Virus record (IMG/VR): IMGVR_UViG_3300038393_001148
Reading direction: 5' to 3' (one strand)
Length of the DNA stretch: 64,000 nt
Source: a virus
Lineage: Duplodnaviria; Heunggongvirae; Uroviricota; Caudoviricetes
The translations under genes and the position numbers were made by a program. Positions 1 through 15,157 of this stretch are shown here, in pieces. Position 1 is the stretch's first letter; each line of letters starts with the position of its first letter. The notes under the pieces were generated by a model. The model had not been told where the DNA came from and searched no databases. It saw only the letters and a list, made by a program, of their open reading frames with translations.

Positions 1-193
1 AATAATTTGGCCCGACCGAATAGCCTAGCTCCTCGCAGGCTGCAAGCGTGGTCGCTACGATCTCGTGCTGATGAACCCCATAGCCGGGGCAGAGCGGATC
101 GAAGAGGAGCCGCCATTGTTCGTCCTCCCCCCAGAGCAGCCAGGCGTTGGTATGCCTAGCATCGCTGCCTGTGGTGACGTAGTAGTAGTTCAT
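1..193 (-). CDS. Partial small protein whose C-terminus runs off the window. The N-terminus carries the Trp-rich module (WLLWGEDEQWRLLF) seen in the zinc-ribbon family.
   Basis: Minus-strand ATG at 193 overlaps the stop of gene 190..474 (ATGA). The translation MNYYYVTTGSDARHTNAWLLWGEDEQWRLLFDP resembles the N-termini of 190..474 and 1213..1515. The track ORF 65..451(+) on the opposite strand is judged spurious. Confidence 0.45.
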   Translation of the reverse strand, partial: MNYYYVTTGSDARHTNAWLLWGEDEQWRLLFDPLCPGYGVHQHEIVATTLAACEELGYSVGPNY

Positions 194-474
194 GGCTTGC
201 ACTCCGGGCAGAGGTATTCCGCATCCCAGGCTTGGAACGTGGCCTCGCAGCTTCCGCAAAAACGGTCCGGGATCTTGGGCTCGATGGTCCGCCAATCGGT
301 GTCCCGATACTTGCTCGGGGGATCGGCATTAAGCTGGAGATTCCCATTGCTGTGCCGGACGTTCCATAATTCTTGCTGCTCGTCCCAGAACAGCGTCCAC
401 GATTTGTCTAGACACTCGCAGAGACGCGGACGCTTGTCCTCGTCATCGTAGATCCACTCGGGAAGCTCCCCCAT
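190..474 (-). CDS. Zinc-ribbon family paralog (W-rich N-terminal module plus C-terminal CGSC-x11-EYLCPECK)
   Basis: Track ORF of 94 aa with WDEQQELW and a C-terminal four-Cys ribbon. It is paralogous to its neighbours. Confidence 0.6.
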   Translation of the reverse strand: MGELPEWIYDDEDKRPRLCECLDKSWTLFWDEQQELWNVRHSNGNLQLNADPPSKYRDTDWRTIEPKIPDRFCGSCEATFQAWDAEYLCPECKP

Positions 475-515
475 AGCCCTAGCAGATTACCAGGAACAAT
501 ATCTACTTACAAGTC

Positions 516-671
516 CTAGTTCAATCCCAACAGGAGGATGACGACACCGGTCGAGCAGATGACGCCTGCCACGAGAGATGAAGCATGCCCACCGCTACGG
601 AAGTAGTGGTGGAAGTTCAACGCGGCGAAGGCCGCATTTAGCATGATGAAGATGTTTGCGAGGAAGAACAT
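516..671 (-). CDS. 51-aa hydrophobic membrane peptide, missed by the 60-aa ORF cutoff
   Basis: Hand translation of the minus strand gives MFFLANIFIMLNAAFAALNFHHYFRSGGHASSLVAGVICSTGVVILLLGLN*, which contains two hydrophobic stretches. Confidence 0.35.
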   Translation of the reverse strand: MFFLANIFIMLNAAFAALNFHHYFRSGGHASSLVAGVICSTGVVILLLGLN

Positions 672-685
672 AGCCGCTAACTCTA

Positions 686-973
686 TCAGGAACAATAACT
701 ACAATCAAGTCGGCATGAATGACAGAGATAGTCCGCGTTGATGGCGTAGATGATGCCTTCGCAGTTGGCGCAGGCTCGATGAGGAATGACGCTGACGTTG
801 GCCTGCCACTGATCGTACTGGATCCCTACGCTAGTGCGGACGGTGTTGGGATCGTCGCGCTCATGCCACATGTGCCAGCCCTGCCAGGACTCGTCGTACC
901 AGATGACCAACCAGTAGTCCCTGATCCCAGATCGGACCTTGGCGCAGTAGGTCTGAGAACGGTCACGCTCCAT
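686..973 (-). CDS. Zinc-ribbon family paralog (WYDESWQGW ... CANCEGIIYAINADYLCHSCR)
   Basis: Track ORF 686..1075. An internal Met (MERDRSQ...) at 973 removes the overlap with the upstream gene and matches the length of the other paralogs. Confidence 0.55.
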   Translation of the reverse strand: MERDRSQTYCAKVRSGIRDYWLVIWYDESWQGWHMWHERDDPNTVRTSVGIQYDQWQANVSVIPHRACANCEGIIYAINADYLCHSCRLDCSYCS

Positions 974-1220
974 CTCTGCACCTCGGACAGAGATAGTCGA
1001 GGAAGCTTGGCCCGCCACACTCTGCGCACTGGAGCCAGAGCCAGTGGAGCGGGCTGAAGTTCGCGGCCTTAACATAGTCGTCAGCTAGCAGGCCGGGATG
1101 CCAATCGCGGTCCAGAGCGTGCCGCCCGGGACTTCTACACGAACTCCAGTGCCAACGCTCAGCTACCTTCCACATCATCACGAATTCGCTGCCGTAGTGA
1201 TAGAAGCGACAGTCATCCAT
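963..1220 (-). CDS. Zinc-ribbon family paralog (CAECGGPSFLDYLCPRCR)
   Basis: Track ORF of 85 aa. The C-terminal motif is nearly identical to those of 1213..1515 and 1525..1845. Confidence 0.6.
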   Translation of the reverse strand: MDDCRFYHYGSEFVMMWKVAERWHWSSCRSPGRHALDRDWHPGLLADDYVKAANFSPLHWLWLQCAECGGPSFLDYLCPRCRDGA

Positions 1221-1515
1221 GGCGGCAGCCCTTGCATAGATAATCCAGGAACGATGGCTCCTCGCACTCGGCGCAGACGGGCCATGATAATGGACAACCG
1301 CTGTCGATGATCTTCCAATCCTTCAGGAAGGAATCCAACTCTAACTCTCCCGAGGAGAAGGGCTCATCGGGAGCCAGCGAGCACGCCAGCCCCAGGCCCT
1401 CCTCGTCGTTATAGGCCCATAGCTCCTGGTCGTCATCCCACCAGATGAGATAGCAGCGCCCGATGCGCCGTTCTCGGACAACGCCTTCGAAGCTATGAGG
1501 GAGGAGCCAGCCCAT
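1213..1515 (-). CDS. Zinc-ribbon family paralog (YLIWWDDDQELW ... CAECEEPSFLDYLCKGCR)
   Basis: Track ORF of 100 aa. It has both the W-rich N-terminal module and the canonical ribbon. Confidence 0.65.
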   Translation of the reverse strand: MGWLLPHSFEGVVRERRIGRCYLIWWDDDQELWAYNDEEGLGLACSLAPDEPFSSGELELDSFLKDWKIIDSGCPLSWPVCAECEEPSFLDYLCKGCRHG

Positions 1516-1524
1516 CGCCCTACA

Positions 1525-1845
1525 TTAGCGGGCAGAATATTTCACGTCAAGCCTGCATCGTTGACAGAGATAGTCTAGGAACGATGGCTCAGCACATTCC
1601 GCGCAGCGCGGCCAGGGCACCGGACAACTGCGCTCTACCTCCACGAAGCCGCTCCTGCGCATCTCGGTGAGGTTGAGGCAGATATATTGGCCCCGGTCGG
1701 TCCGCAGGGTTTTGGAGTTGTCGTTCTCCATCACGTCCCTGACCCAGTGATAGCCGGAGATCTTCCGCTGCTTGGCGCTGAGCCGATGGCTCATCATGAG
1801 ATAAACATCGTCCCGAGGATGATAGAGCAGACGGCCGTCAGTCAT
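1525..1845 (-). CDS. Zinc-ribbon family paralog (CAECAEPSFLDYLCQRCR)
   Basis: Track ORF of 106 aa. The DNA of the C-terminal motif (gagccatcgttcctagactatctctg) is almost identical to that of 1213..1515. Confidence 0.65.
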   Translation of the reverse strand: MTDGRLLYHPRDDVYLMMSHRLSAKQRKISGYHWVRDVMENDNSKTLRTDRGQYICLNLTEMRRSGFVEVERSCPVPWPRCAECAEPSFLDYLCQRCRLDVKYSAR

Positions 1846-1963
1846 CCCGCCTCCGAATGCGCAGATAGAGGGCGCGCAGCAACCGGGCGCAGCCGTAGGC
1901 CAACGCCGCAGCGGCGCTCAGCACGAGGATCCCGATGGCCCAAAAGGCAAGGAAGTTGACCAT
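1838..1963 (-). CDS. 41-aa hydrophobic peptide (MVNFLAFWAIGILVLSAAAALAYGCARLLRALYLRIRRRDD), below the ORF cutoff
   Basis: Hand translation. Its TGA stop overlaps the ATG of gene 1525..1845 (ATGA coupling). It has a single TM-like helix followed by a basic tail. Confidence 0.3.
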   Translation of the reverse strand: MVNFLAFWAIGILVLSAAAALAYGCARLLRALYLRIRRRDD

Positions 1964-2011
1964 GGCCCCGAGCACATTAGCAGGGAGAATATGTTCTGGC
2001 AAGCCTACACA

Positions 2012-2149
2012 TCACAGAGACCTAGATCCGATGGCAAACCACAGGATGCCAAGGGCTACAGGGATGAATAGCCACGGCCAGGTGACGCAGGCCGCAATGA
2101 TGCAGAGGAGAATGATGATGAAGAGGGGTGTATCTTCGGTTGGCCACAT
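2012..2149 (-). CDS. Small two-TM membrane protein (MWPTEDTPLFIIILLCIIAACVTWPWLFIPVALGILWFAIGSRSL)
   Basis: Track ORF 2012..2242. Its first 31 codons are a translation of the tandem 12-bp DNA repeats, so the internal Met at 2149 is preferred as the start. Confidence 0.35.
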   Translation of the reverse strand: MWPTEDTPLFIIILLCIIAACVTWPWLFIPVALGILWFAIGSRSL

Positions 2150-2171
2150 GGTCTCAGAGTACCACACGGTT

Positions 2172-2228
2172 GCCTTGTAGCCTTGTAGAGTCCCTTCAGA
2201 GACCCTTGTAGAGACCCTTGTAGAGTAC
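2172..2228. repeat. Five tandem copies of a 9–13 bp unit CCTTGTAGAG(A/T)(C/A)C at the edge of the divergent control region
   Basis: Read directly: gccttgtag / ccttgtagagtc / ccttcagagac / ccttgtagagac / ccttgtagagtac. Confidence 0.6.
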
Positions 2229-2708
2229 CAGACCACCCTCAAAAGCGCTCACCTTATGCGCGCGTATAGGCATAGCACTCGACCCAAGGCATAGGCTATG
2301 CCTCGTCTCAATGCTATTAACAACCTGCAATACATTATTGCACTTGGCTTAGTAGAGCCAAATCAAACGACATTCTCCCAGGGCCAGGTAAGGATTTAAT
2401 AGTAACCTAGCCTGATCATATAGGCCATTAGCATCCCATACCACAAGAGGATGGCCTACACCTCGGTCATACACATACATCAAGCCCCATGTCCTATGCG
2501 TTGACTCGACATAAGGCCTATGACAAGAAGCGGAGGGCCCGAGAAAGGAGGCTCATTTGTTGCGGTAGGGTGATAGCCCTTCCGGCAGCGGTTTGTAATT
2601 TTCAACTTTCTTGCTATGGGTCCTTGCATTGGGTAACAGACCGGGATTGAGATTCCCTACACTTTAGGAGTCCCTATGGGAACCCGAGAGGACGGGTCCT
2701 CTGCGGTA

Positions 2709-2736
2709 TTGACAGAGAATATTGCGTCTGTATCAC
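2709..2736 (+). promoter_or_regulatory. Candidate sigma70-like promoter TTGACA-N16-TATCAC
   Basis: TTGACAgagaatattgcgtctgTATCAC. It shares the TTGACAGA(G/T)A -35 context with the promoters at 2768, 3997, 6239 and 6714. Confidence 0.35.
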
Positions 2737-2767
2737 ATCCCGTGCAGGGTCCCATATCTGATGGAAC

Positions 2768-2796
2768 TTGACAGATAAGGTCCCTTCGGGTATCAT
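2768..2796 (+). promoter_or_regulatory. Candidate promoter TTGACA-N17-TATCAT. The ATG of gene 2803 lies 6 nt downstream of the -10, which implies a leaderless mRNA.
   Basis: TTGACAgataaggtcccttcgggTATCATaggcatATG. Confidence 0.45.
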
Positions 2797-2802
2797 AGGC
2801 AT

Positions 2803-2988
2803 ATGCGCGTTCGTATCAGCTACACAGTAGACGTGGATGATCAATTCCGACGCGAAATCAATCGCTGGTATGGCCGCCCTGGGCTCGCCAGCCGCGAGGA
2901 GGTCAAGCGCTGGTTTGAGCGGAACGGCTCCTCAATGAACGATGATCTATCCCTTCAGGCCGACGCCGACGAACGCGACGAAGAATGA
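2803..2988 (+). CDS. Hypothetical 61-aa acidic protein, first gene of the rightward early block
   Basis: Track ORF. It sits immediately after the leaderless promoter, and its stop overlaps the next start. Confidence 0.4.
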   Translation: MRVRISYTVDVDDQFRREINRWYGRPGLASREEVKRWFERNGSSMNDDLSLQADADERDEE

Positions 2989-3239
2989 CTACCCCATATC
3001 GTATCGCCTGTCGTCATGGGCATGAGGCCTCCGTTCATCGAAACGGTCTATGCGTTCACTGCCTTATTGAGGGGAAGAACGAGCGAGCGTTTTATCTCTA
3101 CGAGGACGGACGACGACGGCAGATTTTTACTAATCATGGGGAAATGATTCCCCTTCCCGTCTTTACTCGTTGCGCCGAATGCAATGAGTTCGTTGACGAG
3201 GAGGGGGATTATCTCTGCCCCGGATGCCGTTATGGATAA
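2985..3239 (+). CDS. Double zinc-binding protein (CRHGHE...CVHC plus CAECNEFVDEEGDYLCPGCR). Paralog of 4956..5216.
   Basis: Track ORF of 84 aa. It aligns along its full length with 4956..5216. Confidence 0.65.
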   Translation: MTTPYRIACRHGHEASVHRNGLCVHCLIEGKNERAFYLYEDGRRRQIFTNHGEMIPLPVFTRCAECNEFVDEEGDYLCPGCRYG

Positions 3240-3549
3240 CGCCTGGCTCCTCATCCTTCGAGGAGAGGAAGAGAATTACCACCGTTGGATCTGCGTCTGG
3301 TACGAGAACGACATGTTCTGGGATAGCTACATGAATCCCAAGGCGGACACCATTCAATCCTTTCCCGAGGGCACAAGCGGCTATGAGTCCCTGCCAGAAT
3401 ATGACTCCAGCTTCAAGGTGATTCCCAACGCCTCTCCTCTCCCCGTGGGCGTCTGCGGGGGATGCGAAAGCCCCGCCCTCTTGGGCGACTATCTGTGTAA
3501 GAAATGTAGAGCGTCTAATGACGAGGACTCTGCTAGGCTGACGCCATGA
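3232..3549 (+). CDS. Zinc-ribbon family paralog (WICVWYENDMFWDSY ... CGGCESPALLGDYLCKKCR)
   Basis: Track ORF 3184..3549. The internal Met at 3232 gives the W-rich N-terminus and removes most of the overlap. Confidence 0.6.
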   Translation: MDNAWLLILRGEEENYHRWICVWYENDMFWDSYMNPKADTIQSFPEGTSGYESLPEYDSSFKVIPNASPLPVGVCGGCESPALLGDYLCKKCRASNDEDSARLTP

Positions 3550-3830
3550 TCCGGGTACGAATCGTGGGCTTGGCGGCAGGCGGCAAGACGCCCTTCGACG
3601 GGAAGTTCCTCAAGGAGTACGACCCGGGACGCGACGGCGTGGATCCCGATGGGAGCCCCATGCTCGCGCATATCGTCTGCACCGACGATCCCGAGCAGGC
3701 GCTCGTACTCGAAGATCTCGCGGCGCTGCACGAACTGTGGACGCGCGTAGACCCGCGCCGTCCCACTCGGCCGGACGGCAAGCCCAACATGCCGCTGACG
3801 GCGTTCACGGTCGCAACGGAGCAGGCGTGA
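3546..3830 (+). CDS. Hypothetical 94-aa protein
   Basis: Track ORF, start/stop coupled to 3549. Confidence 0.4.
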   Translation: MIRVRIVGLAAGGKTPFDGKFLKEYDPGRDGVDPDGSPMLAHIVCTDDPEQALVLEDLAALHELWTRVDPRRPTRPDGKPNMPLTAFTVATEQA

Positions 3831-3996
3831 CCTGGAAGATCGATGGGCTGGACGAGGGAGAGTTTCTAACCCTCTGGCAGCTTCGCTATCTGCGGGCGGA
3901 CGGGACGCCCTGGCCGGGGATCCATCTGGCGCGGCTGATGACGGCCATCACGATCCTGCGCGGCGCTCATCCCGAGCGGCTTGTTCCTTACCATCC

Positions 3997-4025
3997 TTGA
4001 CAGAGAATTTTCATCTCAGTAAGGT
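3997..4025 (+). promoter_or_regulatory. Candidate promoter TTGACA-N17-TAAGGT. The ATG of gene 4032 lies 7 nt downstream (leaderless).
   Basis: TTGACAgagaattttcatctcagTAAGGTgagtccATG. The same -10 hexamer TAAGGT occurs at 6737. Confidence 0.45.
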
Positions 4026-4031
4026 GAGTCC

Positions 4032-4301
4032 ATGACTGATCGAGCGAAAGAGCGCGACGGGGTTTACTGCGGTAGTCCCGGAGCGATCCGCGCGGCAGCA
4101 ACGGCGTATCCCGGCGCAGATTCGGCAAAGCTTGCCGACGCACTAATCGCGTCTCACCATCCCGTCCTTGGGCTGGATCGGTCGGTGTGTCTCCGTGACA
4201 TCATCGAAGCGTTAGACAAGGAAGCTGGCATGGGCTTCGGCGACCCGGATGACCCGTTCTGGTATGTGGCGAGGTTCCTGGAGCGCAAGTTCAATGGCTG
4301 A
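4032..4301 (+). CDS. Hypothetical 89-aa protein
   Basis: Track ORF directly downstream of the leaderless promoter. Confidence 0.45.
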   Translation: MTDRAKERDGVYCGSPGAIRAAATAYPGADSAKLADALIASHHPVLGLDRSVCLRDIIEALDKEAGMGFGDPDDPFWYVARFLERKFNG

Positions 4302-4611
4302 GACGCCGATGTTCGATGGAACGCCATATGCCGGGTCCCTCTGGCGGGACTATAACGATCATATCTTCCGCCTAGACAGGATCACCGAAGATTTGTCTCG
4401 GCGAGCCTCCGACGAAAAATTCGGCCTGGAGCCTTTGCTGACCCTCCACGGGACGATGATGTATTGCCCCGACTGGTGCCAGGATCCCCGGCATGCCGAT
4501 GGGCAGCCCTACGAGACCTGGGCGCTGCCCAAGGATCTGCCGAGCGGCGAGATCTTCGGCTGGTCCCTCATGTGGATGAACAATGGACCGTCGAGCCATG
4601 ACTCGGATTAG
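4294..4611 (+). CDS. Hypothetical 105-aa protein
   Basis: Track ORF 4249..4611. The internal Met (MAETPMF) overlaps the upstream stop (ATGGCTGA). Confidence 0.45.
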   Translation: MAETPMFDGTPYAGSLWRDYNDHIFRLDRITEDLSRRASDEKFGLEPLLTLHGTMMYCPDWCQDPRHADGQPYETWALPKDLPSGEIFGWSLMWMNNGPSSHDSD

Positions 4612-4623
4612 CGAGCTAGGACA

Positions 4624-4962
4624 TTGATGGACGATCATCCCAACAACAACGTCAGAGGTGGCCTGGGCATCCTCAAGGATGCGCAAGATCAACGCTGGCA
4701 GCATATAGGAATGCGGGTCCTCGGACCCGCCGAGCGTCTTGACATCTTCTGCCTGTTGGATAATGACGATGGCTGTCAGACCAAGTTCGTCCAACCACAC
4801 GATCCCTGGCTGGACAGCCTAGTGGCTTTTGTTCCGTCCATGCGCGACATGAGTTGTTGCGATAGGTGCGGTGGATGGTGGAATAAGAGAATGTTTGACT
4901 GGCTGAATGCCCCGGATTATATGTGCCCATTTTGTCGTTACGACCTTGACGACCAATGGTAG
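4624..4962 (+). CDS. Zinc-ribbon family variant (CCDRCGGWW...DYMCPFCRYD)
   Basis: Track ORF of 112 aa with the family signature at its C-terminus. Confidence 0.55.
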   Translation: MMDDHPNNNVRGGLGILKDAQDQRWQHIGMRVLGPAERLDIFCLLDNDDGCQTKFVQPHDPWLDSLVAFVPSMRDMSCCDRCGGWWNKRMFDWLNAPDYMCPFCRYDLDDQW

Positions 4963-5216
4963 GCATCCGGGGAAAAGACTACATAATCTCGTGCCGCCAT
5001 GGGCACGAGGATACTCTCCATCAAGCCGGAGATTGCAGAGAATGTCTTAAGCGTGGCCGCAAGGAATCCGCTTTCCGCCTCTGGAAAGACGGAACGATAG
5101 AGACTTACTATGATCAGCCATTGCCTCCCATGTGCCGCTGCGCAGAGTGCGACAAGTTCATCGCGGCCAGCGATGATTATCTCTGCGAAGACTGTAGAGT
5201 CCAGGTGGATAGATGA
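4956..5216 (+). CDS. Double zinc-binding protein (CRHGHE...CRECL plus CAECDKFIAASDDYLCEDCR). Paralog of 2985..3239.
   Basis: Track ORF of 86 aa. Confidence 0.65.
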   Translation: MVGIRGKDYIISCRHGHEDTLHQAGDCRECLKRGRKESAFRLWKDGTIETYYDQPLPPMCRCAECDKFIAASDDYLCEDCRVQVDR

Positions 5217-5419
5217 ATATCTGTTCCCTCTGCCATAACGAAGTGATTATCAGGACGCTTCCGGCGAGCGGGGTCATGATCGAGGAATGCCGGACGTGCA
5301 AGACGGCAACGAACTGGCATACGCATACAAAAATGAACTGCACGCGCCTCTGTCATTGCGGCAAGGGCATTTGGCAAGACGACTATCTATGCTGCTGGTG
5401 TCGGAGCGAACATGACTAA
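5213..5419 (+). CDS. Double zinc-ribbon protein (CSLCHNE...CRTCK ... CHCGKGIWQDDYLCCWCR). Upstream partner of cassette copy 1.
   Basis: Track ORF of 68 aa. Confidence 0.55.
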   Translation: MNICSLCHNEVIIRTLPASGVMIEECRTCKTATNWHTHTKMNCTRLCHCGKGIWQDDYLCCWCRSEHD

Positions 5420-5705
5420 CGAAGAATTCATCGCGGCGGCTGAGTACTACAGGTGCCCGTTCTTCGCCAAGAGCGACCCGTGGGCAGCGACCTGGCTCGT
5501 GCGCTGGAACGGAACAGAATGGGAAGAATCCCGCTCTGATAAAGATGGCCTGCTTAAGGACGAGTTCTCCCCAATGGGCGGCATCAGCCACTTCACACTC
5601 CGATGCTGGGAGTTAGCGTGGAAAGATAGATTCCTGTTCTACAACCAGCCCGCTAGGCCTATTGCCGAGGACCTTTATGAGCACATGAGATCGGTGGACC
5701 CTTGA
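5412..5705 (+). CDS. 'MTNEEFIA...RPARPIAEDLYEHMR' family protein, copy 1
   Basis: Track ORF of 97 aa. It shares its N-terminus and C-terminal motif with 5953..6243 and its C-terminal motif with 7588..7890. Confidence 0.6.
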   Translation: MTNEEFIAAAEYYRCPFFAKSDPWAATWLVRWNGTEWEESRSDKDGLLKDEFSPMGGISHFTLRCWELAWKDRFLFYNQPARPIAEDLYEHMRSVDP

Positions 5706-5953
5706 TGGACATTGATCCGGGCCGCTGGTGCGGCGAATGCCGAATTCTGGCCTGCACACCGGGAGATTATCTCTGCAAGCACTGTCGGCTGGACGATGGC
5801 GCACCCATCGTCCAGTGGTGGATGAATGGGGCGATGAAGGGCGTCTACGCGGAGGTATATTTTCTCTCGAATTACGAGGGTAAGAATTATGTCTGCGAGA
5901 CGAAGCCTCCGCATAGGGTGTACGCTGTCGGGCCTACGGGGATCAAACGCTGA
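5702..5953 (+). CDS. Protein with the zinc ribbon at its N-terminus (CGECRILACTPGDYLCKHCR)
   Basis: Track ORF of 83 aa. Confidence 0.55.
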   Translation: MMDIDPGRWCGECRILACTPGDYLCKHCRLDDGAPIVQWWMNGAMKGVYAEVYFLSNYEGKNYVCETKPPHRVYAVGPTGIKR

Positions 5954-6243
5954 TGACTAACGAAGAATTTATCGCTGATGCCAAGTTTTACAAACGCTCG
6001 TTTTACGCTAAGAGCCACAGGCGAAGTGGAACCTGGCTTCTCCAGTGGAAGGAGGGCGAAGGTTGGCAAGAACGCGAAATAAGACGGGACGAGTGGGTAT
6101 CGGCCACGACCATTAACCACTTTTTCACCACTCCGGACAATGATTGGAAACTATCCTGGGCCGACGATACTCTGATCTATGATCGACCTGCCAGGCCCAC
6201 GGCTGAAGACTGGTATGAACACATGAGACTAAGGGACCCTTGA
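5953..6243 (+). CDS. 'MTNEEFIA...RPARPTAEDWYEHMR' family protein, copy 2
   Basis: Track ORF of 96 aa. It is a tandem paralog of 5412..5705. Confidence 0.6.
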   Translation: MTNEEFIADAKFYKRSFYAKSHRRSGTWLLQWKEGEGWQEREIRRDEWVSATTINHFFTTPDNDWKLSWADDTLIYDRPARPTAEDWYEHMRLRDP

Positions 6244-6267
6244 CAGGGGCCCTTGCGCAAAATATTC
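6239..6267 (+). promoter_or_regulatory. Candidate promoter TTGACA-N17-TATTCT
   Basis: TTGACAggggcccttgcgcaaaaTATTCT. It overlaps the stop of 5953..6243, and gene 6289 begins 21 nt downstream. Confidence 0.35.
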
Positions 6268-6288
6268 TGATCCGGTAGGATCCGCCGC

Positions 6289-6492
6289 ATGGCTACTTAC
6301 AAGAAGGTCATCAACCTCCAGCCCGGCGACCAGATCATCCGGGACCCGAGCATCCGCTTTCCGGATCTCCGGTTCTTGGGAACGGTGGAGCAGGTCATCG
6401 CCCTCGGCGATGACGCGGACACGTTCGAGATCAAGCTCCAGCCTTCCGGATCCTTCAAGCGCCCGGCCAAGCATCTCCTGGAGGTGCAGTAG
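6289..6492 (+). CDS. Hypothetical 67-aa protein
   Basis: Track ORF. Confidence 0.4.
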   Translation: MATYKKVINLQPGDQIIRDPSIRFPDLRFLGTVEQVIALGDDADTFEIKLQPSGSFKRPAKHLLEVQ

Positions 6493-6711
6493 ATGGCCCG
6501 CACCAGGGACGAGTGGGTGCAGGCCATGGGCGAGGACGTGAAGCTGATCAACTACTACCTGCGTCTACGCCGCGAGGATGAGGAGCCCACCGCGCTCTCC
6601 TTCGCCATGGCCCTCAAGGAGGCCCGGCGACTTCAGTCCGATATCTATCGCTATGCCCACGATATCTACGGGATTAGCAAGGAAGACATCGACGCGGAGC
6701 GCCCGCTATGA
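6493..6711 (+). CDS. Hypothetical 72-aa protein
   Basis: Track ORF directly abutting the gene at 6492. Confidence 0.4.
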   Translation: MARTRDEWVQAMGEDVKLINYYLRLRREDEEPTALSFAMALKEARRLQSDIYRYAHDIYGISKEDIDAERPL

Positions 6712-6713
6712 AG

Positions 6714-6742
6714 TTGACACACCTCACTTAGCCTGGTAAGGT
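6714..6742 (+). promoter_or_regulatory. Candidate promoter TTGACA-N17-TAAGGT. The ATG of gene 6750 lies 7 nt downstream (leaderless).
   Basis: TTGACAcacctcacttagcctggTAAGGTagaagtcATG. This is the same geometry as at 3997. Confidence 0.45.
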
Positions 6743-6749
6743 AGAAGTC

Positions 6750-7073
6750 ATGGATCTACAGAATCTACGGCTTGCTTACACCAAGGGGCAGCGAGCCGCG
6801 TTGAAGCTCCTACTGGAGGATCCGCGCCTGCCCGAGGACGCCAAGGAATTGGTGCTCGAACATCATGGCTACACCGAGGCCATGATCGCGGAGATGGAGG
6901 CTCCTCAATATTCTTCTGAGGAACTTGAGGCCATCGCCCATGTGGAAGAGCGCATCAGGGAGGACGGCGCTCATAGCGTCTCCGGATGCCCGCGCTATTG
7001 CCGCGCCATGTGCCAATATCGGAAGACGATTAAGGAGCTTGAAGCGAAGGGCTGGAAGCCTACAAGTCAATGA
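6750..7073 (+). CDS. Hypothetical 107-aa protein
   Basis: Track ORF downstream of the leaderless promoter. Confidence 0.45.
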   Translation: MDLQNLRLAYTKGQRAALKLLLEDPRLPEDAKELVLEHHGYTEAMIAEMEAPQYSSEELEAIAHVEERIREDGAHSVSGCPRYCRAMCQYRKTIKELEAKGWKPTSQ

Positions 7074-7315
7074 CCTTCCGACACAAAGATAACAAAGAGT
7101 CCCGATGGGAATGGCTGCCCGAGATCTCGGCGCTGAAGGTTGTTGATGGGCCACGAGCGGGCGAAATTATCGGCAACGGTCAATACACGCAGAAATATAT
7201 CTCACAGTACATCGAGTCCGGCGTCTGGATCGAAGTGTATCAATTCCGTTGCGCTAACTGCGATGCAGGAGTGGGAGAACTCGACTATCTATGTCGGAAG
7301 TGCCGAGATGTCTAG
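7070..7315 (+). CDS. Zinc-ribbon family paralog (CANCDAGVGELDYLCRKCRDV)
   Basis: Track ORF of 81 aa. Confidence 0.6.
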   Translation: MTFRHKDNKESRWEWLPEISALKVVDGPRAGEIIGNGQYTQKYISQYIESGVWIEVYQFRCANCDAGVGELDYLCRKCRDV

Positions 7316-7333
7316 AGGCGAATATACAGGACA

Positions 7334-7591
7334 ATGGGGATCATGATGTACTGCCCACTCTGCGGAGTCGCAAGTAGGGATGGTATCGGACGCCCCTGGT
7401 GCCAACGACACGCTCTACACGGATATAAGCAGCCCAAGCTCTATAACCCTGATACGGGAGAAGCATGGTTCCCGTGCGCAGAGTGCGGTAAGACACGAGA
7501 GATCATCCTTGGCGGGGCCGTCCACGCCATCTCCAAGGTTCCCGATGATGATTATCTATGCGTCACTTGTCGTAGGAAATTCGATTCATGA
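7334..7591 (+). CDS. Double zinc-ribbon protein (CPLCG...CQRH ... CAECGK...DDDYLCVTCRR). Upstream partner of cassette copy 3.
   Basis: Track ORF of 85 aa. Confidence 0.6.
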   Translation: MGIMMYCPLCGVASRDGIGRPWCQRHALHGYKQPKLYNPDTGEAWFPCAECGKTREIILGGAVHAISKVPDDDYLCVTCRRKFDS

Positions 7592-7890
7592 ATAAGTCTC
7601 AACTCCTTGGATACACCTTCTTCACAGGTGACTCAAAACGATATATCATCCTTGAATGCAGCCCTCCCCATCCTGGCATGATAGAGGTGTACGGATGTCT
7701 TCCAGGGACGCTTCAACCAAATTTGCACGGCGATCATTCTCCCTGGGAAATCGACACATTGGTTAATTGCTTTAAACAATACCCCTGGACGATGGATGTC
7801 TTTGGATTTGGACTTGAGTATATTTATCCCCTCCGTCCTACCGCAGAGCAATTTTACGAAATGCTGAGAAGATCCGATGCTCTCGCATGA
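7588..7890 (+). CDS. '...RPTAEQFYEMLR' family protein, copy 3. Its C-terminal motif is shared with 5412..5705 and 5953..6243.
   Basis: Track ORF of 100 aa. Confidence 0.55.
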   Translation: MNKSQLLGYTFFTGDSKRYIILECSPPHPGMIEVYGCLPGTLQPNLHGDHSPWEIDTLVNCFKQYPWTMDVFGFGLEYIYPLRPTAEQFYEMLRRSDALA

Positions 7891-7970
7891 AGAGACATAG
7901 GATTGCCGCCCAGGGAGATTATTTGTGCGGAACCTGCCGCGTGCTTGACGAGAATATTTCGCCCTGGTAA
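7887..7970 (+). CDS. 27-aa micro-ORF carrying the family signature (MKRHRIAAQGDYLCGTCRVLDENISPW). It is either a degenerate relic or a functional mini-copy.
   Basis: Hand translation. Its ATG overlaps the stop of 7588..7890 (ATGA). Confidence 0.3.
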   Translation: MKRHRIAAQGDYLCGTCRVLDENISPW

Positions 7971-7980
7971 CCTTGGCGCA

Positions 7981-8340
7981 ATGCCCTACGTTTCTTACGC
8001 CAAGATGGTCTCGCCTGGTCGGACTAGCGTCTATCATATCGCAGAACGTTATGTCGGTCGGACTCGCTGGTCCCCGTGCTGCGGGGCTCATAACTACGGA
8101 CAAAGAATCTCTCTTCGAGACCTTACTGAGTCGGATGCCTCTCTCAGGGAGTGCAAGCAATGCGCTCAGATCATCTTAAAGCGTCGATCAGCTATTGACA
8201 AGCTTATAGGTCCAACGGGAACCTCAAAGCTGGTCCTTATGGATCTTGAAAGGGCCGTGGACGAATACGACATGGCAGATACCGTCTTCGGCCACGTCGT
8301 CAAGGACATTGTGTTGAAGCACTATCATCAGGAGGAATAG
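7981..8340 (+). CDS. Hypothetical Cys-rich protein (CCGAHNYG...CKQCAQ)
   Basis: Track ORF 7903..8340. An internal Met is preferred because the 5' part overlaps the micro-ORF in another frame. Confidence 0.35.
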   Translation: MPYVSYAKMVSPGRTSVYHIAERYVGRTRWSPCCGAHNYGQRISLRDLTESDASLRECKQCAQIILKRRSAIDKLIGPTGTSKLVLMDLERAVDEYDMADTVFGHVVKDIVLKHYHQEE

Positions 8341-8663
8341 TGCCTTTCACAGTTACCGGGTCCACGCGGGTCTATCGACATCAGGTCATTAGTTCTGGAA
8401 AGACTGTACATGTCGAAATCGAGATCAGCGATGCCCAAGTCTACGCTTGGCACGCCCAACTAGAAGCTGAGCGTGAAGCTCGCCTAAGGGAAGACGCTAC
8501 CTCCATCTGTAGCGACTGCGAAAGCCGTCCTAGTCAAGATGGAGACTACCTTTGCAAAGAGTGTCGTGACCTGCTAGACTACGTTCCTCCCGAGCCTGTG
8601 ATAGATGAGCTAGAGAAGCTTCGTCTTGAGGCTATGGAAGAAGGATATAGGTCTGCCATATGA
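8340..8663 (+). CDS. Zinc-ribbon family paralog (CSDCESRPSQDGDYLCKECRDLL)
   Basis: Track ORF of 107 aa. Confidence 0.55.
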   Translation: MPFTVTGSTRVYRHQVISSGKTVHVEIEISDAQVYAWHAQLEAEREARLREDATSICSDCESRPSQDGDYLCKECRDLLDYVPPEPVIDELEKLRLEAMEEGYRSAI

Positions 8664-8789
8664 AAATCCAACGAATCAGAAACACCAAGACTTTCGCCTT
8701 TCGCGTCACCACGAAGAAGGGCACCAAGGTCATCTCCCGACATCGGCTGAAGCTGCGCACTCCGAAGCTTCCTCCAAAGAGGAGGCAAG

Positions 8790-9161
8790 ATGGCTACGGA
8801 GGCTGACGTTCTCCCCGGTTCGGTATGGGAGTACAAGGACACCCAGGTGCAGGTCGAGGTGGTGAAGCGAAACGGAAATTTGGGTACTTGGCGGGTAACG
8901 TCATATCCAACCTACCCCTTATACGACGGAAAGTATTGGTACACCGGCAATACTGTTTCAAGTCTTGTCCGTAATGCGTATTTAGTTCAAGATGATCCTC
9001 AAGAAGGTGAGCTAACCGATCTTGACGTTATGAATTATCACGTCGCTGATAGCCCCGTGAAGAGGATTTCCCGTTCTCGCGGAGACTTCATTATCCATTT
9101 AGAGGACGCAATCCTAATCGCGTCAGGCCTGAAGCTTAAACTGGTGAAGGACGATGAGTAA
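8790..9161 (+). CDS. Hypothetical 123-aa protein
   Basis: Track ORF with a strong Shine-Dalgarno sequence (AAGAGGAGG) 5 nt upstream. Confidence 0.5.
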   Translation: MATEADVLPGSVWEYKDTQVQVEVVKRNGNLGTWRVTSYPTYPLYDGKYWYTGNTVSSLVRNAYLVQDDPQEGELTDLDVMNYHVADSPVKRISRSRGDFIIHLEDAILIASGLKLKLVKDDE

Positions 9162-9336
9162 GGTAATCCAAGAGGGAAACACCCTCAAGCTGAGGGGCCA
9201 AGGCTTTGGCACCATGACAGAGGCCGGTTCCGGCGAGAAGCAACTCATGAGCCTTATCTCTGCCATCGGCGTGACCTCCCCGGAAGAGAAGCAGGAGTGG
9301 ATGAATGGGTTTATTCCGCCGACGAGAGAAGACTGA
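9154..9336 (+). CDS. Hypothetical 60-aa protein
   Basis: Track ORF, coupled to the flanking genes. Confidence 0.3.
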   Translation: MSKVIQEGNTLKLRGQGFGTMTEAGSGEKQLMSLISAIGVTSPEEKQEWMNGFIPPTRED

Positions 9337-9679
9337 GGAGCTACGGATGAGATATCCAGCAGACTTGGCTGCCGAGTGGTATATGGAATCGGTTAATGCG
9401 CAGCCTGATGACCATAAGAGGTGGACTCGGGTCTTTATTCAGATCCGCCGCCCCGGTCGTGATAGTGTTTGCGACTTTGGGTCCGTGGACATTCGAGATC
9501 CCTCCTTTGAAACAAATTACAAGGAACTTGTGAATAAAGCACGGAAGCGTGTGGACCTACTAATAAGTTTCACTGGCGATGGAGAGCCACCAGAAGGTAT
9601 CTGCGCCGAATGCGGCGGGGACGCTTCAGCCAACGATTTCCTCTGCGAGACCTGTAGGAAGTCAGCCTCCGCAATATAA
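9305..9679 (+). CDS. Zinc-ribbon family paralog (CAECGGDASANDFLCETCRK)
   Basis: Track ORF of 124 aa. Confidence 0.55.
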   Translation: MGLFRRREKTEELRMRYPADLAAEWYMESVNAQPDDHKRWTRVFIQIRRPGRDSVCDFGSVDIRDPSFETNYKELVNKARKRVDLLISFTGDGEPPEGICAECGGDASANDFLCETCRKSASAI

Positions 9680-9686
9680 TCTTTGT

Positions 9687-10115
9687 ATGCCTTGGGAAGA
9701 CGTAGCACAGCCATCTGACATTACCGTCCATCGCCCTAATCCAGAGATGGATCCTTTCTACGATGGGCGAGGCGGGAACGACTATGAGGGTTTCCGAGGA
9801 AGAATCCCCCTAATCTACAACCCGCGAGAACGTCAGATTTGGACCGGCGAGCCCAACTGGTTTCACCATGACACCATCGAACATCATGGGCTTACCTCTA
9901 GCCAGTCGAGTCGTTATAATTATGATACGGCCTACCATGGATACTTTAATGGCGGGCCTGAGTGGGGCAGGGGAGAGCTAAGGTGGTATAATACTCCCCC
10001 CGAACCGGGGGCGCACGAGAACGTTGTTAATGCTCTAACCCAGGCTGGCTATCAGGTTAATCCCCAGACTCAAGCAGACGACCTAGAGAACGACGATCTC
10101 TGGGAAGACGACTAG
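9687..10115 (+). CDS. Hypothetical protein rich in W, Y and G, starting MPWEDVAQ
   Basis: Track ORF 9579..10115. The internal Met lies just after the upstream stop. Confidence 0.4.
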   Translation: MPWEDVAQPSDITVHRPNPEMDPFYDGRGGNDYEGFRGRIPLIYNPRERQIWTGEPNWFHHDTIEHHGLTSSQSSRYNYDTAYHGYFNGGPEWGRGELRWYNTPPEPGAHENVVNALTQAGYQVNPQTQADDLENDDLWEDD

Positions 10116-10151
10116 ACACGAAAAGGTCTGTTTGCTAGCCTTTCAGGCTGA

Positions 10152-10676
10152 ATGCCTGATAAGCCGCTACTACTACTTGATGTTGACGGAGTGCTGTGTC
10201 CCTTCGAAGGGATGATGCGCTATGAGAAGGCCGCTGGCCTAGATGTGGAAGGGATCCCCGGCTTCGAATGGAGCGAGTGGGGATGCGTTTTCTGGCGCAA
10301 GGAGAACGCTGAGCGCGTCCGCCGTCTCGCCCAATCCTTCGAGATCCATTGGTGTACGGGATGGTGCGAGGACGCCAACGAGATTATCTCTCCGCTCCAT
10401 GGCCTCCCCTCCTTCCCGGTCGTCCCGCTAGAGACAGCCTCCTATCTCGGCCAACACGACATCCACTGGAAGCACTCTGCTATCGAAGAATATGTCGGGG
10501 ATCGCCCCTACGCCTTTATCGATGACGACATCACTCATAAGGGCGTAGAGTACGCCGAGAGACGCGGCGTCCCGACGCTGTGGGTCCATACCCGCCCGAG
10601 CGAGGGCATTCTCGATAAACATGTCGAGAAGCTTGAAGAATTCGCGCGTCTTTGCGAGAATGTTTCCGATGCCTAA
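10152..10676 (+). CDS. HAD-superfamily phosphatase-like protein
   Basis: Motif I LLLDVDGVL (DxDGxL) and motif IV FIDDD are read in the translation. Confidence 0.65.
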   Translation: MPDKPLLLLDVDGVLCPFEGMMRYEKAAGLDVEGIPGFEWSEWGCVFWRKENAERVRRLAQSFEIHWCTGWCEDANEIISPLHGLPSFPVVPLETASYLGQHDIHWKHSAIEEYVGDRPYAFIDDDITHKGVEYAERRGVPTLWVHTRPSEGILDKHVEKLEEFARLCENVSDA

Positions 10677-11121
10677 CCCGCCCTTCGGCCTCCCGGCCAC
10701 GCTTGATTCGGCCATCGAGGTCTGGAAGCACCGCAACCTCACCAAGGAGCAGCGGGCGCAGTTCAAGGATAAAAAGCTGATACGGATTGCCTACCCGTAT
10801 CAGCCCATGGGAAACTATATCGGCTCCCCCCGCGCGACTGGCAGCCGCCCTTGGTACCCGCACCCGCATGAGGTGCGACCATGTTGCTGGGATGTCAAGG
10901 CAACATCCGTCAATTTCTTTACCTGGACCTGGCATAACCACTGCCGCACCGCCCGCCATGTAGCCCACCTATTCGACGTGAGCGAGGTCGAGCTACGTCG
11001 TCATGTGGGAATAAAGTCGGCCCCGTCACACTGTTCATGCGGGCGTTTCCGGCCCAAGGCCGACTATTTGTGCGGAAAGTGTCGAGAGAAGTTCCTTGAC
11101 ACCGAAATTTTGGACAAGTAG
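10669..11121 (+). CDS. Zinc-ribbon family paralog (CSCGRFRPKADYLCGKCREKF)
   Basis: Track ORF 10621..11121. The Met at 10669 (MPNPPF) overlaps the stop of the HAD gene. Confidence 0.55.
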   Translation: MPNPPFGLPATLDSAIEVWKHRNLTKEQRAQFKDKKLIRIAYPYQPMGNYIGSPRATGSRPWYPHPHEVRPCCWDVKATSVNFFTWTWHNHCRTARHVAHLFDVSEVELRRHVGIKSAPSHCSCGRFRPKADYLCGKCREKFLDTEILDK

Positions 11122-11131
11122 GCTTGTCACC

Positions 11132-12091
11132 ATGACAAAACAGAGTAGTACCAAGTTCTATGCCCTAGCCGTGCTCACCGTGGTTGGTGTGATCGTGGCG
11201 CTGTGGCTGTTCTTCTCATGGATCGGCGCATTCCAGAACCCCAAGCCGGGGAACGTTGGCATCTGCCAGCACACCGGGTGGAAGGGTTCGGGCACCTGCG
11301 GTGTCCTCCCGGCCGGTTCCAAGAAGAAGAACATCGGCATCCAGAACGAGCTTCGCAACCTGCCGATCACTCAGCGAAATTACTTGCTGACGGCAGACGC
11401 GGCTCGCTCGGATTCCAAGAACGTCGATAACGTGGTCCTCCCGACCGCTGACGGCGTGCGCGTGGGGATCGAGGGACAGGCGTTGTTCACCCTGGACGGC
11501 GATCCCAACAAGGCGCTGAGCTTCTACAAGAAGTTCTACCAGTTCAGCCCTTGGACCAGCAACGGATGGTCGTCCTGGCTGGACGTTCGCTTCCGTCCCA
11601 TCCTTGAGAACGCTCTACGTGAGGAAGTCGGCGGATATAACTGCACCGATCTCAACCCGTCCTGCGTGGCAATCAAGGGCGGCGCTGCGAATGGGACGAA
11701 GGCCAATGCCAATATCTCGCTCATCCAGGGCCGGATCGCGGACCAGCTTCGTCAGGATCTCAAGGACCGTCTCGGCGAGGAGTATTTCGTCAATGTACAG
11801 TTCCAGTTGACGAAGGTGACTCTTCCGGGCCTTCAGGACGAAATCGACCGCTACAACGCGGCGAAGGCGTCCCAGGCCACTGCGCAGGCCCGTGCAGAGC
11901 AGGTCAAGCAGGTCGCCATCGGCGAGCGCCAGGCTGCCGAGGAGAAGGCCAAGGGCATCCGTGCCCTGAACGAGGCCTACAAGAACTCCACGACCAAGGC
12001 ACAGATCGACGCCATCGCGGCCCTCCCGCGTAACCTCCAGACTCTCGTCCTCGGCGGGAGCGGAACCGGGCTCACGAAGCTCATCAAGTAG
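11132..12091 (+). CDS. SPFH/band-7-like membrane protein
   Basis: It has an N-terminal TM helix (FYALAVLTVVGVIVALWLFF). The central domain and the A/E/K/Q-rich C-terminal tail ending ...RNLQTLVLGG resemble prohibitin/HflC-type proteins. Track ORF 11096..12091. Confidence 0.5.
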   Translation: MTKQSSTKFYALAVLTVVGVIVALWLFFSWIGAFQNPKPGNVGICQHTGWKGSGTCGVLPAGSKKKNIGIQNELRNLPITQRNYLLTADAARSDSKNVDNVVLPTADGVRVGIEGQALFTLDGDPNKALSFYKKFYQFSPWTSNGWSSWLDVRFRPILENALREEVGGYNCTDLNPSCVAIKGGAANGTKANANISLIQGRIADQLRQDLKDRLGEEYFVNVQFQLTKVTLPGLQDEIDRYNAAKASQATAQARAEQVKQVAIGERQAAEEKAKGIRALNEAYKNSTTKAQIDAIAALPRNLQTLVLGGSGTGLTKLIK

Positions 12092-12850: not shown

Positions 12851-13320
12851 CCATGCGGATTCCTGACGGGATCCCCGACATCCCTCCGTACCACATAGAA
12901 GAGAGAATTATGCTTGGAGAATTGAAGTTCGATTTCAGTCGCACCGAGATCATGGAGCGAGTGAAGGAAAACCGCGATAAGCATGCTGAAGAATTCGCTG
13001 TCGCGCTGAAGGGCTACTACCTGGAGGTTCAGGAGCAGCTTGAGAAGATCGCTGAGGAGGCGCAGAAGGCTTCCGTAAAGGCGGGCAAGGAGAAGGACCC
13101 CAAGTCTCTCACCTACTCCGTCAATGCGCGTAAGCCCGAGGATCACACCGGCGACTACGACCGGATTCTCGATATGCTTCGCCTGGCGAAGAACGAGAAC
13201 ATCGAACTGGACGAGCAGGAGTTCGCCCAGTACGTCCGCGACGAATGGGCCTGGAAGCAGCGCTTCACCGAGACCTCCTCTACCTATCTCTCCAAGTTCG
13301 GAACGAGGATCAGCGGATGA
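12847..13320 (+). CDS. Hypothetical coiled-coil protein (157 aa)
   Basis: Track ORF. Confidence 0.45.
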   Translation: MTMRIPDGIPDIPPYHIEERIMLGELKFDFSRTEIMERVKENRDKHAEEFAVALKGYYLEVQEQLEKIAEEAQKASVKAGKEKDPKSLTYSVNARKPEDHTGDYDRILDMLRLAKNENIELDEQEFAQYVRDEWAWKQRFTETSSTYLSKFGTRISG

Positions 13321-13505
13321 CGGTGAGGGATATGTCGCTGACGGAGATGTCTCCAAAGAAGATCCGCCTTCTTAGGGACTTCGGTCCTTATTCGAAGGGG
13401 GAGGTGGGGGATCTCTACAAGAGAGATGATGAACTCGCCTGGGTATATTTTGATGGGGATGACAAGCGCATCCTCTTCCACGACGAATACGAAGACGTGA
13501 AGTGA
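13317..13505 (+). CDS. Hypothetical 62-aa protein
   Basis: Track ORF 13245..13505. The Met at 13317 overlaps the upstream stop (ATGA). Confidence 0.35.
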   Translation: MTVRDMSLTEMSPKKIRLLRDFGPYSKGEVGDLYKRDDELAWVYFDGDDKRILFHDEYEDVK

Positions 13506-13690
13506 GCCAGATTTCTATTGTGGTGACCCTGAAGAAGGGAGCCAGCGTTGCCGCCGTACAGACGGGGCTGCGCAACGCCGGATTTGATCAGAAGCTCGCA
13601 ACCGACACCAGCTTCTATGGGACCATCGATGAGGACCAGTACAGGAACCTCGCGGTGATCACGGGTATTGATTCCGTCAAGCCCATGTGA
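13502..13690 (+). CDS. Hypothetical 62-aa protein
   Basis: Track ORF. Confidence 0.35.
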   Translation: MSQISIVVTLKKGASVAAVQTGLRNAGFDQKLATDTSFYGTIDEDQYRNLAVITGIDSVKPM

Positions 13691-14115: not shown

Positions 14116-14116
14116 T

Positions 14117-15121: not shown

Positions 15122-15157
15122 CTTGCAACCCACGTAAGACCCTGGTACGCTACACAC

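Follow-up and report, generated by a model that had tools for sequence, protein, structure and literature searches.

The window analysed here is a 64,000-nucleotide (nt) stretch of phage DNA (IMG/VR record IMGVR_UViG_3300038393_001148), corresponding to about 25.5-89.5 kb of the 165,017 bp metagenome contig Ga0395906_0000090 of the Joint Genome Institute (JGI). It encodes an undescribed family of small proteins that is specific to one lineage of large uncultured myoviruses. The common module is a predicted zinc ribbon of 20-30 residues with four Cys, C-x(1,2)-C-x9-12-D-Y-L-C-x2-C-R, which is the sole conserved part of the proteins and is under purifying selection. The copies multiplied locally, by tandem duplication with divergence, in packed operons of small non-structural genes, and at least one of them has probably decayed. 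There is little doubt that the family is real, new and duplicating in place. The best overall explanation, a lineage-specific, duplicating ribbon family with an early, accessory, protein-binding role in host interaction, stands at about an even chance. What is new is the lineage-specific sequence family and an expansion that is unusual for a tailed phage; the predicted fold class is a known one.

An expanded family of ribbon proteins

A six-frame translation of the window contains 21 sites of the pattern [DNE][YFW][LIMV]C..C[RK], whereas shuffled sequences average 0.07 and never exceed 1, an enrichment of 300-fold. The full signature, C-x(1,2)-C-x(9-24)-D-[YF]-[LIM]-C-x2-C-[RK], is borne by 20 intact open reading frames (ORFs), and the window also holds one half-ribbon remnant and one copy truncated by the window edge. 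On realignment the four Cys are invariant in all 20 intact copies and the D, Y and R each reach 90% conservation or more, so that the four-Cys signature and the near-invariance of its Asp/Tyr and trailing Arg, as described in an initial annotation made from the sequence, both hold. All the ORFs of that annotation are present where it placed them. Of the copies that it listed, 20 are intact, whereas 1..193 has no ribbon within the window and 7887..7970 has only half of one. Its C-x2-C first knuckle is found in most copies but is C-x-C in two (g5213 and g10669).

Recognition of the copies can be made independent of the window. A control hidden Markov model (HMM) built from 121 ribbons of non-self database proteins, and scored on all 1854 stop-to-stop segments of the window, recovered 19 intact copies at E < 1e-3 and the remaining one (g4624, with an 18-residue spacer) at E 0.019; the half-ribbon scored E 1e-5 and noise began at E ~0.7. 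The ORF at 28860..29057 (+), which had been put forward as a divergent copy, is a 65-amino-acid (aa) protein with a generic ribbon (CAEC-x14-WFCTSCK) that matches the family HMM by its first knuckle only (10.6 bits, E 0.03), and its membership is unsupported.

The conservation is not that of a DNA element. At six conserved residues, codon positions 1 and 2 are 90% identical between copies whilst position 3 is 46% identical, and the conserved ribbon residues draw on all six codons for Arg and on five for Leu. Synonymous variation beside amino acid conservation means that the ribbon is not a DNA repeat and that its conservation is at the protein level. The ORFs are short, and gene callers differ on some of them between contigs, which might suggest that they are not genes and that the motif arises from chance ORFs or from the repetition of a DNA element. 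This is countered by the 300-fold enrichment over shuffles, by the synonymous codon variation, by some 125 independent database relatives of the same architecture and by orthologues that are kept across phages only about 50% identical. The enrichment, the independent HMM and the codon data effectively refute an artefact, the probability of which is negligible. Gene presence/absence differences among the near-identical contigs L001-L008 were considered separately, and proved to be differences of gene calling, not of sequence.

The left flank of the window continues the same leftward array, with eight further intact copies and the C-terminus of the truncated one, and no ribbon copy lies in the 10 kb beyond the window on the right. 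This brings the count of intact copies to at least 29, with 84 kb of the 165 kb contig examined. The paralogous expansion proposed in the initial annotation is therefore genuine, and bigger than was claimed. The copies in the window are as follows, with E values for the HMM.

1..193, minus strand: truncated member, the N-terminal 64 aa of a 90-aa protein; its ribbon, CAECDEPAYYDYLCRRCR, lies off the window
190..474, minus strand: g190, 94 aa; CGSC-x12-EYLCPECK, the sole E/K variant; sub-family A, with a W-rich N-terminal region; E 8.2e-4
686..973, minus strand: g686, 95 aa; CANC-x12-DYLCHSCR; sub-family A; E 8.6e-9
963..1220, minus strand: g963, 85 aa; CAEC-x9-DYLCPRCR; sub-family A; E 2.7e-11; called by JGI as gene P0001
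1213..1515, minus strand: g1213, 100 aa; CAEC-x9-DYLCKGCR; sub-family A; E 2.6e-11
1525..1845, minus strand: g1525, 106 aa; CAEC-x9-DYLCQRCR; sub-family A; E 5.2e-10
2985..3239, plus strand: g2985, 84 aa; CAEC-x11-DYLCPGCRYG; extra N-terminal C-R-H-G-H...CVHC cluster; E 5.2e-10
3232..3549, plus strand: g3232, 105 aa; CGGC-x10-DYLCKKCR; sub-family A; E 4.7e-11
4624..4962, plus strand: g4624, 112 aa; CDRC-x18-DYMCPFCR, a long spacer; E 0.019; called gene P0019
4956..5216, plus strand: g4956, 86 aa; CAEC-x11-DYLCEDCR; paralogue of g2985; E 1.3e-10
5213..5419, plus strand: g5213, 68 aa with 10 Cys; CHC-x9-DYLCCWCR, a C-x-C first-knuckle variant; E 3.1e-6
5702..5953, plus strand: g5702, 83 aa; CGEC-x11-DYLCKHCR at residues 10-29; E 1.9e-7
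7070..7315, plus strand: g7070, 81 aa; CANC-x10-DYLCRKCR; E 1.3e-8
7334..7591, plus strand: g7334, 85 aa; CAEC-x24-DYLCVTCR; extra N-terminal CPLC...CQRH cluster; E 5.1e-8
7887..7970, plus strand: half-ribbon, 27 aa; second knuckle only, DYLCGTCR; E 1e-5 for the half
8340..8663, plus strand: g8340, 107 aa; CSDC-x11-DYLCKECR, internal, then a 31-aa acidic tail; E 1.2e-9
9305..9679, plus strand: g9305, 124 aa; CAEC-x10-DFLCETCR; E 1.1e-10
10669..11121, plus strand: g10669, 150 aa; CSC-x9-DYLCGKCR; basic, isoelectric point (pI) 9.5; possible start at 10621; E 1.8e-7
13687..14115, plus strand: g13687, 142 aa; CLEC-x16-DYICKVCR; directly upstream of a DUF5925+AAA ATPase gene; E 2.2e-4
21835..22170, minus strand: g21835, 111 aa; CGNC-x11-DYLCPKCR; minus-strand pair with g22136 in the late structural module; E 2.3e-10
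22136..22708, minus strand: g22136, 190 aa; DUF5679 (residues 123-161), then CPEC-x12-DYLCRVCR; basic, pI 9.5; E 2.2e-9
63657..63980, minus strand: g63657, 107 aa; CPEC-x12-DYICVRCR; between a DUF7236-like gene and a SNF2 helicase gene in the replication module; E 2.6e-8

The ribbon of the truncated member was verified on the parent contig (locus L001, 10282-10554), where the ORF ends ...CAECDEPAYYDYLCRRCRT.

Growth by local duplication

Most copies lie in two divergently transcribed arrays, with the divergence point at ~1.9-2.8 kb. The earlier impression that almost every second gene belongs to the family is true of the arrays, at 1-9.7 kb, and false for the remaining window. Neighbouring genes overlap by 1, 4, 8 or 11 nt, a pattern typical of translationally coupled phage operons. 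Two near-consensus promoter candidates lie on the plus strand:

2768..2796, plus strand: sigma70-like candidate, TTGACA-17-TATCAT, 11/12 matches; just upstream of 2803..2988, the first gene of the rightward array
6240..6268, plus strand: sigma70-like candidate, TTGACA-17-TATTCT; before 6289..6492

Likeness between copies is greater for neighbours than for distant pairs (permutation p = 0.009), and 15 of 28 copies have their best partner no more than 2.4 kb away. The half-ribbon at 7887..7970, the start of which overlaps the stop codon of the preceding gene by 4 nt, is probably a decayed copy. Taken together, the likeness of neighbours and the decayed half-ribbon point to birth and death of copies by local duplication.

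A second paralogous family, without the ribbon, has three members in the rightward array (5412..5705, 5953..6243 and 7588..7890, all +), which have in common a C-terminal motif, ...RP[IT]AE..YE.[ML]R..D. Each lies directly downstream of a ribbon gene (g5213, g5702 and g7334, respectively), which suggests segmental duplication of a two-gene unit. Kinship of this second family with the W-rich N-terminal region of the ribbon proteins was considered and rejected as not significant (E 0.06-0.12).

Four copies in the window lie outside the arrays: g13687 by the AAA+ gene, g21835 and g22136 in the head module and g63657 in the replication module. The pair at 21835..22708 (-) is wedged into the plus-strand late module, with a 264-aa ORF on one side and the prohead protease, cement and major head protein genes on the other, and is a moron-like insertion.

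A constant ribbon with a variable remainder

The typical member is 60-150 aa long and usually acidic. As the initial annotation had it, the ribbon is constant and the remainder variable: when the N-terminal regions of window and database members were pooled (n = 149), they fell into 125 groups unlinked by BLAST, 109 of them singletons. Only a few groupings reach beyond the ribbon. Sub-family A has 11 members, with a W-rich N-terminal region and an [NS]-x-[SC]-P-[LV]-P motif ahead of the ribbon, and an iterated profile of that region recruits just one outside protein. The paralogues g2985 and g4956 match each other at E 4e-22, and both carry a C-R-H-G-H-x8-9-C-x2-C cluster. Full-length orthologues in other phages were found for g63657, for g7334 (P0086, from another phage) and for g2985/g4956. 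The ribbon of g5702 is confirmed as N-terminal, the only such placement in the window. Extra Cys/His clusters stand beside the ribbon in g2985, g4956, g5213 (10 Cys in 68 aa), g7334 and g22136 (DUF5679 and a CPDC).

The median pI is 5.6 for the members in this phage and 5.0 for the database set; 61-72% of members have a pI below 6, many below 4.6, and the mean net charge of the ribbon is -1.1 to -1.5. Acidic members and a net-negative ribbon favour contacts with protein over contacts with nucleic acid.

Relatives in databases and the search for a known family

When 1.84 billion cluster representatives were searched exhaustively with HMMER, 212 matched at E <= 1e-3, of which the best 150 were analysed; the figures in this paragraph refer to those best 150 of 212. 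They include 141 proteins of less than 260 aa (mostly 60-140 aa) with the strict signature, about 125 of them non-self. All 141 have the four Cys, 131 have a spacer of 9-12 residues, and in over 85% the ribbon is located no more than 12 residues from the C-terminus. The D, Y, L and R are 93-99% conserved among them, a figure that is partly circular since the profile selected for those residues. All of 20 sampled database members come from metagenome assemblies, and they are unnamed or spuriously named (RpoP/RPC12, S27E, HypA, rubrerythrin).

The initial annotation did not recognise the signature as a named family, and the searches bear this out: when a ribbon HMM was built and phage, metagenome and Pfam databases were searched, the family did not collapse into any known zinc-ribbon family, and Pfam, PHROGs, NCBIfam and the PDB all lacked a significant ribbon match. 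In Pfam no ribbon match reached threshold; for DZR_2, DZR, Zn_Ribbon_1, Zn_ribbon_3, Zn_ribbon_8 and Zn_ribbon_15 the best scores were 12.9-16.7 bits against gathering cut-offs of 25-34, and most members had no match at E <= 1. The only true Pfam domain match in the family is that of DUF5679 (PF18930) in g22136 (E 2.7e-9). No PHROGs profile matched any of 20 members, nor any NCBIfam profile any of the 10 members tested, at E <= 0.01, and a sequence search of the PDB gave generic CxxC matches only. Of the ClpX and DksA/TraR fingers, neither zf-C4_ClpX nor zf-dskA_traR matched at E <= 1; Zn_Ribbon_TF matched g22136 only, with 15.7 bits against a cut-off of 29. The family spacer of 9-12 residues compares with the 17-19 characteristic of C4 fingers of the ClpX, DksA/TraR and TFIIB types. 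For the finger of I-TevI-type homing endonucleases there was a single 11.6-bit I-TevI_ZnF match, in g10669, and no member has a nuclease domain. Pfam searches of the longer database members gave no informative fusions, a STAS-domain match (P0025) being to a protein without the exact signature. Literature searches returned no description of the ribbon family, nor anything about the samples of origin.

Searches of other kinds were less suited to so short a module. A tblastn search of 50,697 phage records with g1213 gave no match at E <= 1, where a short ribbon module cannot reach significance in 2.3 Gb. A word-indexed search of 5.8 billion proteins, a method ineffective for a module of ~25 aa, returned only self among nine candidates with a 20-sequence profile, and three matches among 20 candidates with a 125-sequence profile. 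A strict back-translated two-knuckle DNA pattern had no match in IMG/VR, and a looser one matched one viral contig and 11 genome contigs. With the back-translated pattern, one genome for each of 185,579 bacterial and archaeal species yielded no credible member. A cellular family was considered and rejected, the genome matches being a DsbA-like CxxC, a ComF-type double ribbon, a Cys-repeat protein and out-of-frame matches.

Since pipelines mislabel members as RpoP, S27E, HypA or rubrerythrin, a domain model for the family is merited. The signature gives a searchable handle on a block of phage 'dark matter'.

Distribution among related phages

In four contigs (L009, L022, L026 and L027), which are all those with enough context to judge, core genes of the window have homologues of 34-67% aa identity. 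Family members were counted in these, in one further contig and in the nearest isolate.

L009: replication module collinear, 39-64% aa identity; 2 copies in 20 kb
L022: homologue of the AAA+ protein, 52% identity; 4 copies in 12.5 kb
L026 (158.7 kb contig): homologues of the HAD protein and of an 864-aa protein; 3-4 copies in 20 kb
L027: structural genes 35-67% identical; 6 copies in 10.7 kb
L010: only small proteins in common; 7 copies in 16.5 kb, in divergent arrays
Rhodococcus phage E3, the nearest isolate: tail sheath ~30% identical; 0 copies in 97.5 kb

Relatives thus differ in number and repertoire, as was to be expected from the initial annotation's suggestion of an arms-race family. 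Occurrence in relatives that share core genes, together with absence from E3, makes the family a hallmark of one uncultured lineage in which the repertoire varies.

The SNF2 helicase gene has a ribbon gene just upstream of it in both L009 (18287..18595) and the window (63657..63980). The order of this ribbon gene relative to a conserved 181-aa gene is swapped between the two phages, and the N-terminal parts of the two ribbon proteins are not orthologous.

Proposed role and its rivals

On sequence grounds, the four Cys of each ribbon would bind one Zn2+ and nucleate the fold of a small protein. The near-invariant Asp, Tyr and Leu before Cys3 and the Arg after Cys4 may form a common protein-contact surface (a 'handle'), and the variable N-terminal parts would give each paralogue a specificity of its own. 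The genes would be transcribed early, as their predicted timing, by host RNA polymerase, and the products would act as accessory host-interaction factors in takeover or counter-defence. That the ribbon is a shared protein-binding handle, and not purely a structural staple, is plausible but tentative, at somewhat below an even chance. An anti-defence or takeover role for most members, as suggested by gene context (packed small-gene operons and sigma70-like promoters) and by analogy, is possible but rather less likely. It is doubtful that DYLC-x2-CR might be a universal docking tag, joining ~30 effector heads to one conserved hub, either a host machine or the phage AAA+ ATPase. Were it so, the family would correspond, among phages, to bacterial polymorphic-toxin systems or giant-virus multigene families, with one handle and many interchangeable warheads, and the heads, duplicating in tandem, would diversify in the course of an arms race with the host.

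Several points weigh against an early protein-binding role. The promoters are consensus matches only, of which 13 were found against 8.2 expected. The late structural module contains two of the copies and the replication module one, and a few of the proteins are basic (g10669 and g22136, both pI 9.5). The conservation of the putative handle in the database matches is subject to the circularity mentioned above. An AlphaFold2 model of g1213, made from a 9-sequence alignment, has three N-terminal strands and a ribbon, with a predicted local distance difference test score (pLDDT) of 64 (73-75 in the ribbon region); that of g63657, from a 5-sequence alignment, has a pLDDT of 43. Both models are poor, so zinc binding, the ribbon fold and the exposure of the D, Y, L and R are drawn from the amino acid sequences. 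No PDB structure matched at E < 1 in a Foldseek search, in which the eIF2-beta zinc ribbon came up only at E 2.7.

The main rival, which has an appreciable though minor chance of being right, is that the ribbon is only a zinc-stabilised fold nucleus, letting very short, fast-evolving polypeptides fold, and has no common partner. The functions of the paralogues would then be unrelated or nil, and the D-Y-L...R residues would serve intramolecular packing or a salt bridge. An aromatic or hydrophobic residue before Cys3 is indeed common in ordinary ribbons, as the weak matches to DZR_2, DZR and the Zn_ribbon families reflect, and this too counts against a handle. A spacer held to 9-12 residues is as expected of a beta-hairpin, the N-terminal parts are mutually unrelated, and the copies are spread over the early arrays and the replication and late modules. 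However, the Arg after Cys4 and the Asp three residues before Cys3 are ~99% conserved (139 of 141, among the best 150 of 212 matches, and partly circular), more strictly than in generic ribbons, which usually have Gly after Cys4, and the near-exclusive C-terminal placement suggests a positional requirement. A conserved short terminal module on diverse cargo is also the usual look of a targeting signal, the capsid-targeting sequences of T4 being an example. The ribbon could be a tag or adaptor for a machine (the DUF5925+AAA ATPase, a host Clp-type unfoldase or the capsid-packaging apparatus) by which ~30 proteins would be delivered, remodelled, degraded on schedule, or packaged and injected. 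The position of g13687, abutting the AAA+ gene, and the conservation of that gene in L022 (52% identity), where the next 4 kb downstream hold four family members, would fit such a tag; the L022 locus begins inside the AAA+ gene. Yet only one of at least 29 copies adjoins the ATPase, the Pfam ClpX zinc finger goes unmatched at E <= 1, and most copies are behind sigma70-like promoters and far from structural genes, which is unexpected for virion cargo. A machine tag is accordingly improbable.

Many zinc ribbons bind nucleic acids, and the ribbon might instead contact DNA or RNA, as in TFIIB, TraR/DksA and Ogr-type fingers, making the family one of regulators. The automatic names RpoP/RPC12, S27E and HypA on some members, and the two strongly basic members, agree with this. 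However, the net-negative average charge of the ribbon and the low pI of most members do not, about thirty regulators in one phage are implausible, and no DNA- or RNA-binding zinc-finger family was matched at threshold. This is the least probable of these functional alternatives, with only a slight chance. The preferred explanation is the duplicating family of accessory, protein-binding host-interaction factors.

Comparison with known systems

Generic Pfam ribbons (DZR_2, PF18912; DZR, PF12773; Zn_Ribbon_1, PF13240; Zn_ribbon_3, PF13248) resemble the family in having two CxxC knuckles ~10-12 residues apart in a module of ~25 aa, with a hydrophobic or aromatic residue before the third Cys, and their matches to it score 12.9-14.9 bits against cut-offs of 25-27. 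The family differs from them in the Arg after Cys4, where generic ribbons usually have Gly, in the D-Y-L-C-x2-C-R sequence, in its position almost always at the extreme C-terminus, in its restriction to one phage lineage and in its ~30-fold expansion in one genome. In DUF5679, a ~40-aa Cys-containing domain, the likeness is one of company: in g22136 it lies upstream of the family ribbon (residues 168-188). It has no match in any other member and is therefore distinct from the family module, with which it co-occurs in that one protein.

WhiB-like (Wbl) proteins are, like the family, small, four-Cys and metal-binding, and are common in actinobacteriophages; E3 has one (gp75). Their Cys residues are spaced C-x(n)-C-x2-C-x5-C, and they bear an Fe-S cluster and a G[VI]WGG turn. 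These features were not seen in the ribbon family on inspection, and Pfam Whib did not match at E <= 1.

Multigene families are known from large DNA viruses, such as the multigene families (MGF) of African swine fever virus (ASFV) and the ankyrin family of poxviruses, and phages have arrays of small early genes, such as the hyperplastic regions of T4 and the host-takeover module of SPO1. The ribbon family is like these in consisting of small accessory genes by putative early promoters, in tandem duplication and divergence, in a repertoire that varies between relatives and in a conserved module with a variable remainder. In contrast, the genes of the T4 and SPO1 arrays are not paralogous, and the eukaryotic-virus families use other folds. 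A precedent for anti-defence activity in a small zinc-ribbon phage protein is Enki, a 52-aa protein of Autolykiviridae phage 1.080.O that inhibits the AbiH and Retron defences (bioRxiv 10.1101/2024.06.14.598830), compared here by description only. Enki is a single gene of a tailless vibriophage, whereas the ribbon family is expanded and in a tailed phage.

With at least 29 copies, the family accounts for about one in ten of the genes of this 165 kb phage, and large paralogous families are rare in tailed phages. The scale of the expansion implies that selection for diversity in a single small protein scaffold is strong and still under way. With ~150 variant N-terminal heads on a constant module, the family is well suited to takeover and counter-defence screens and to a search for a common partner, if any.

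The phage and its other genes

Other genes of the window were assigned by domain or family matches:

10152..10676, plus strand: HAD_SAK_2 phosphatase
11096..12091, plus strand: SPFH protein
14117..15121, plus strand: DUF5925+AAA ATPase, phrog_33861, function unknown; directly after g13687
22822..24990: prohead protease
25104..25652: cement protein
25660..26742: major head protein
39907..41409: tail sheath
47425..50100: M23-peptidase tail protein
61140..63011: SNF2 helicase

The right flank runs into a replication module with genes for a primase, RNase H, a DnaE-type polymerase, RecA, RuvC and a sigma70-region-4 protein. A megablast search of 50,697 phage records with 32 kb of the window gave no match. 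The tail sheath is 27-30% identical to those of Rhodococcus phage E3, Gordonia phage Stormageddon and Mycobacterium cluster C phages, which are large actinobacterial myoviruses; this likeness marks the phage as a large uncultured myovirus, and its sequence suggests that the host is probably an actinobacterium. The Mycobacterium cluster C myoviruses, which are distant relatives, carry many tRNA genes; no tRNA gene was found in the 64 kb window.

The 1236-aa protein encoded at 17030..20740 (+) begins with a generic zinc ribbon, MQCADCG-x17-CPQCG, that is not of the DYLC type, and the protein belongs to no Pfam or PHROG family. The HAD_SAK_2 phosphatase, also conserved in L026, and the SPFH/Band-7 membrane protein sit amid ribbon genes. 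In L026 a 730-aa ORF with a Hint_2 (intein-type) domain is followed by a 548-aa ORF (13314..17175). Both match a single 864-aa protein encoded immediately to the left of the window, which would fit an intein or a split in L026. The same contig encodes a Ku homologue (6089..6862).

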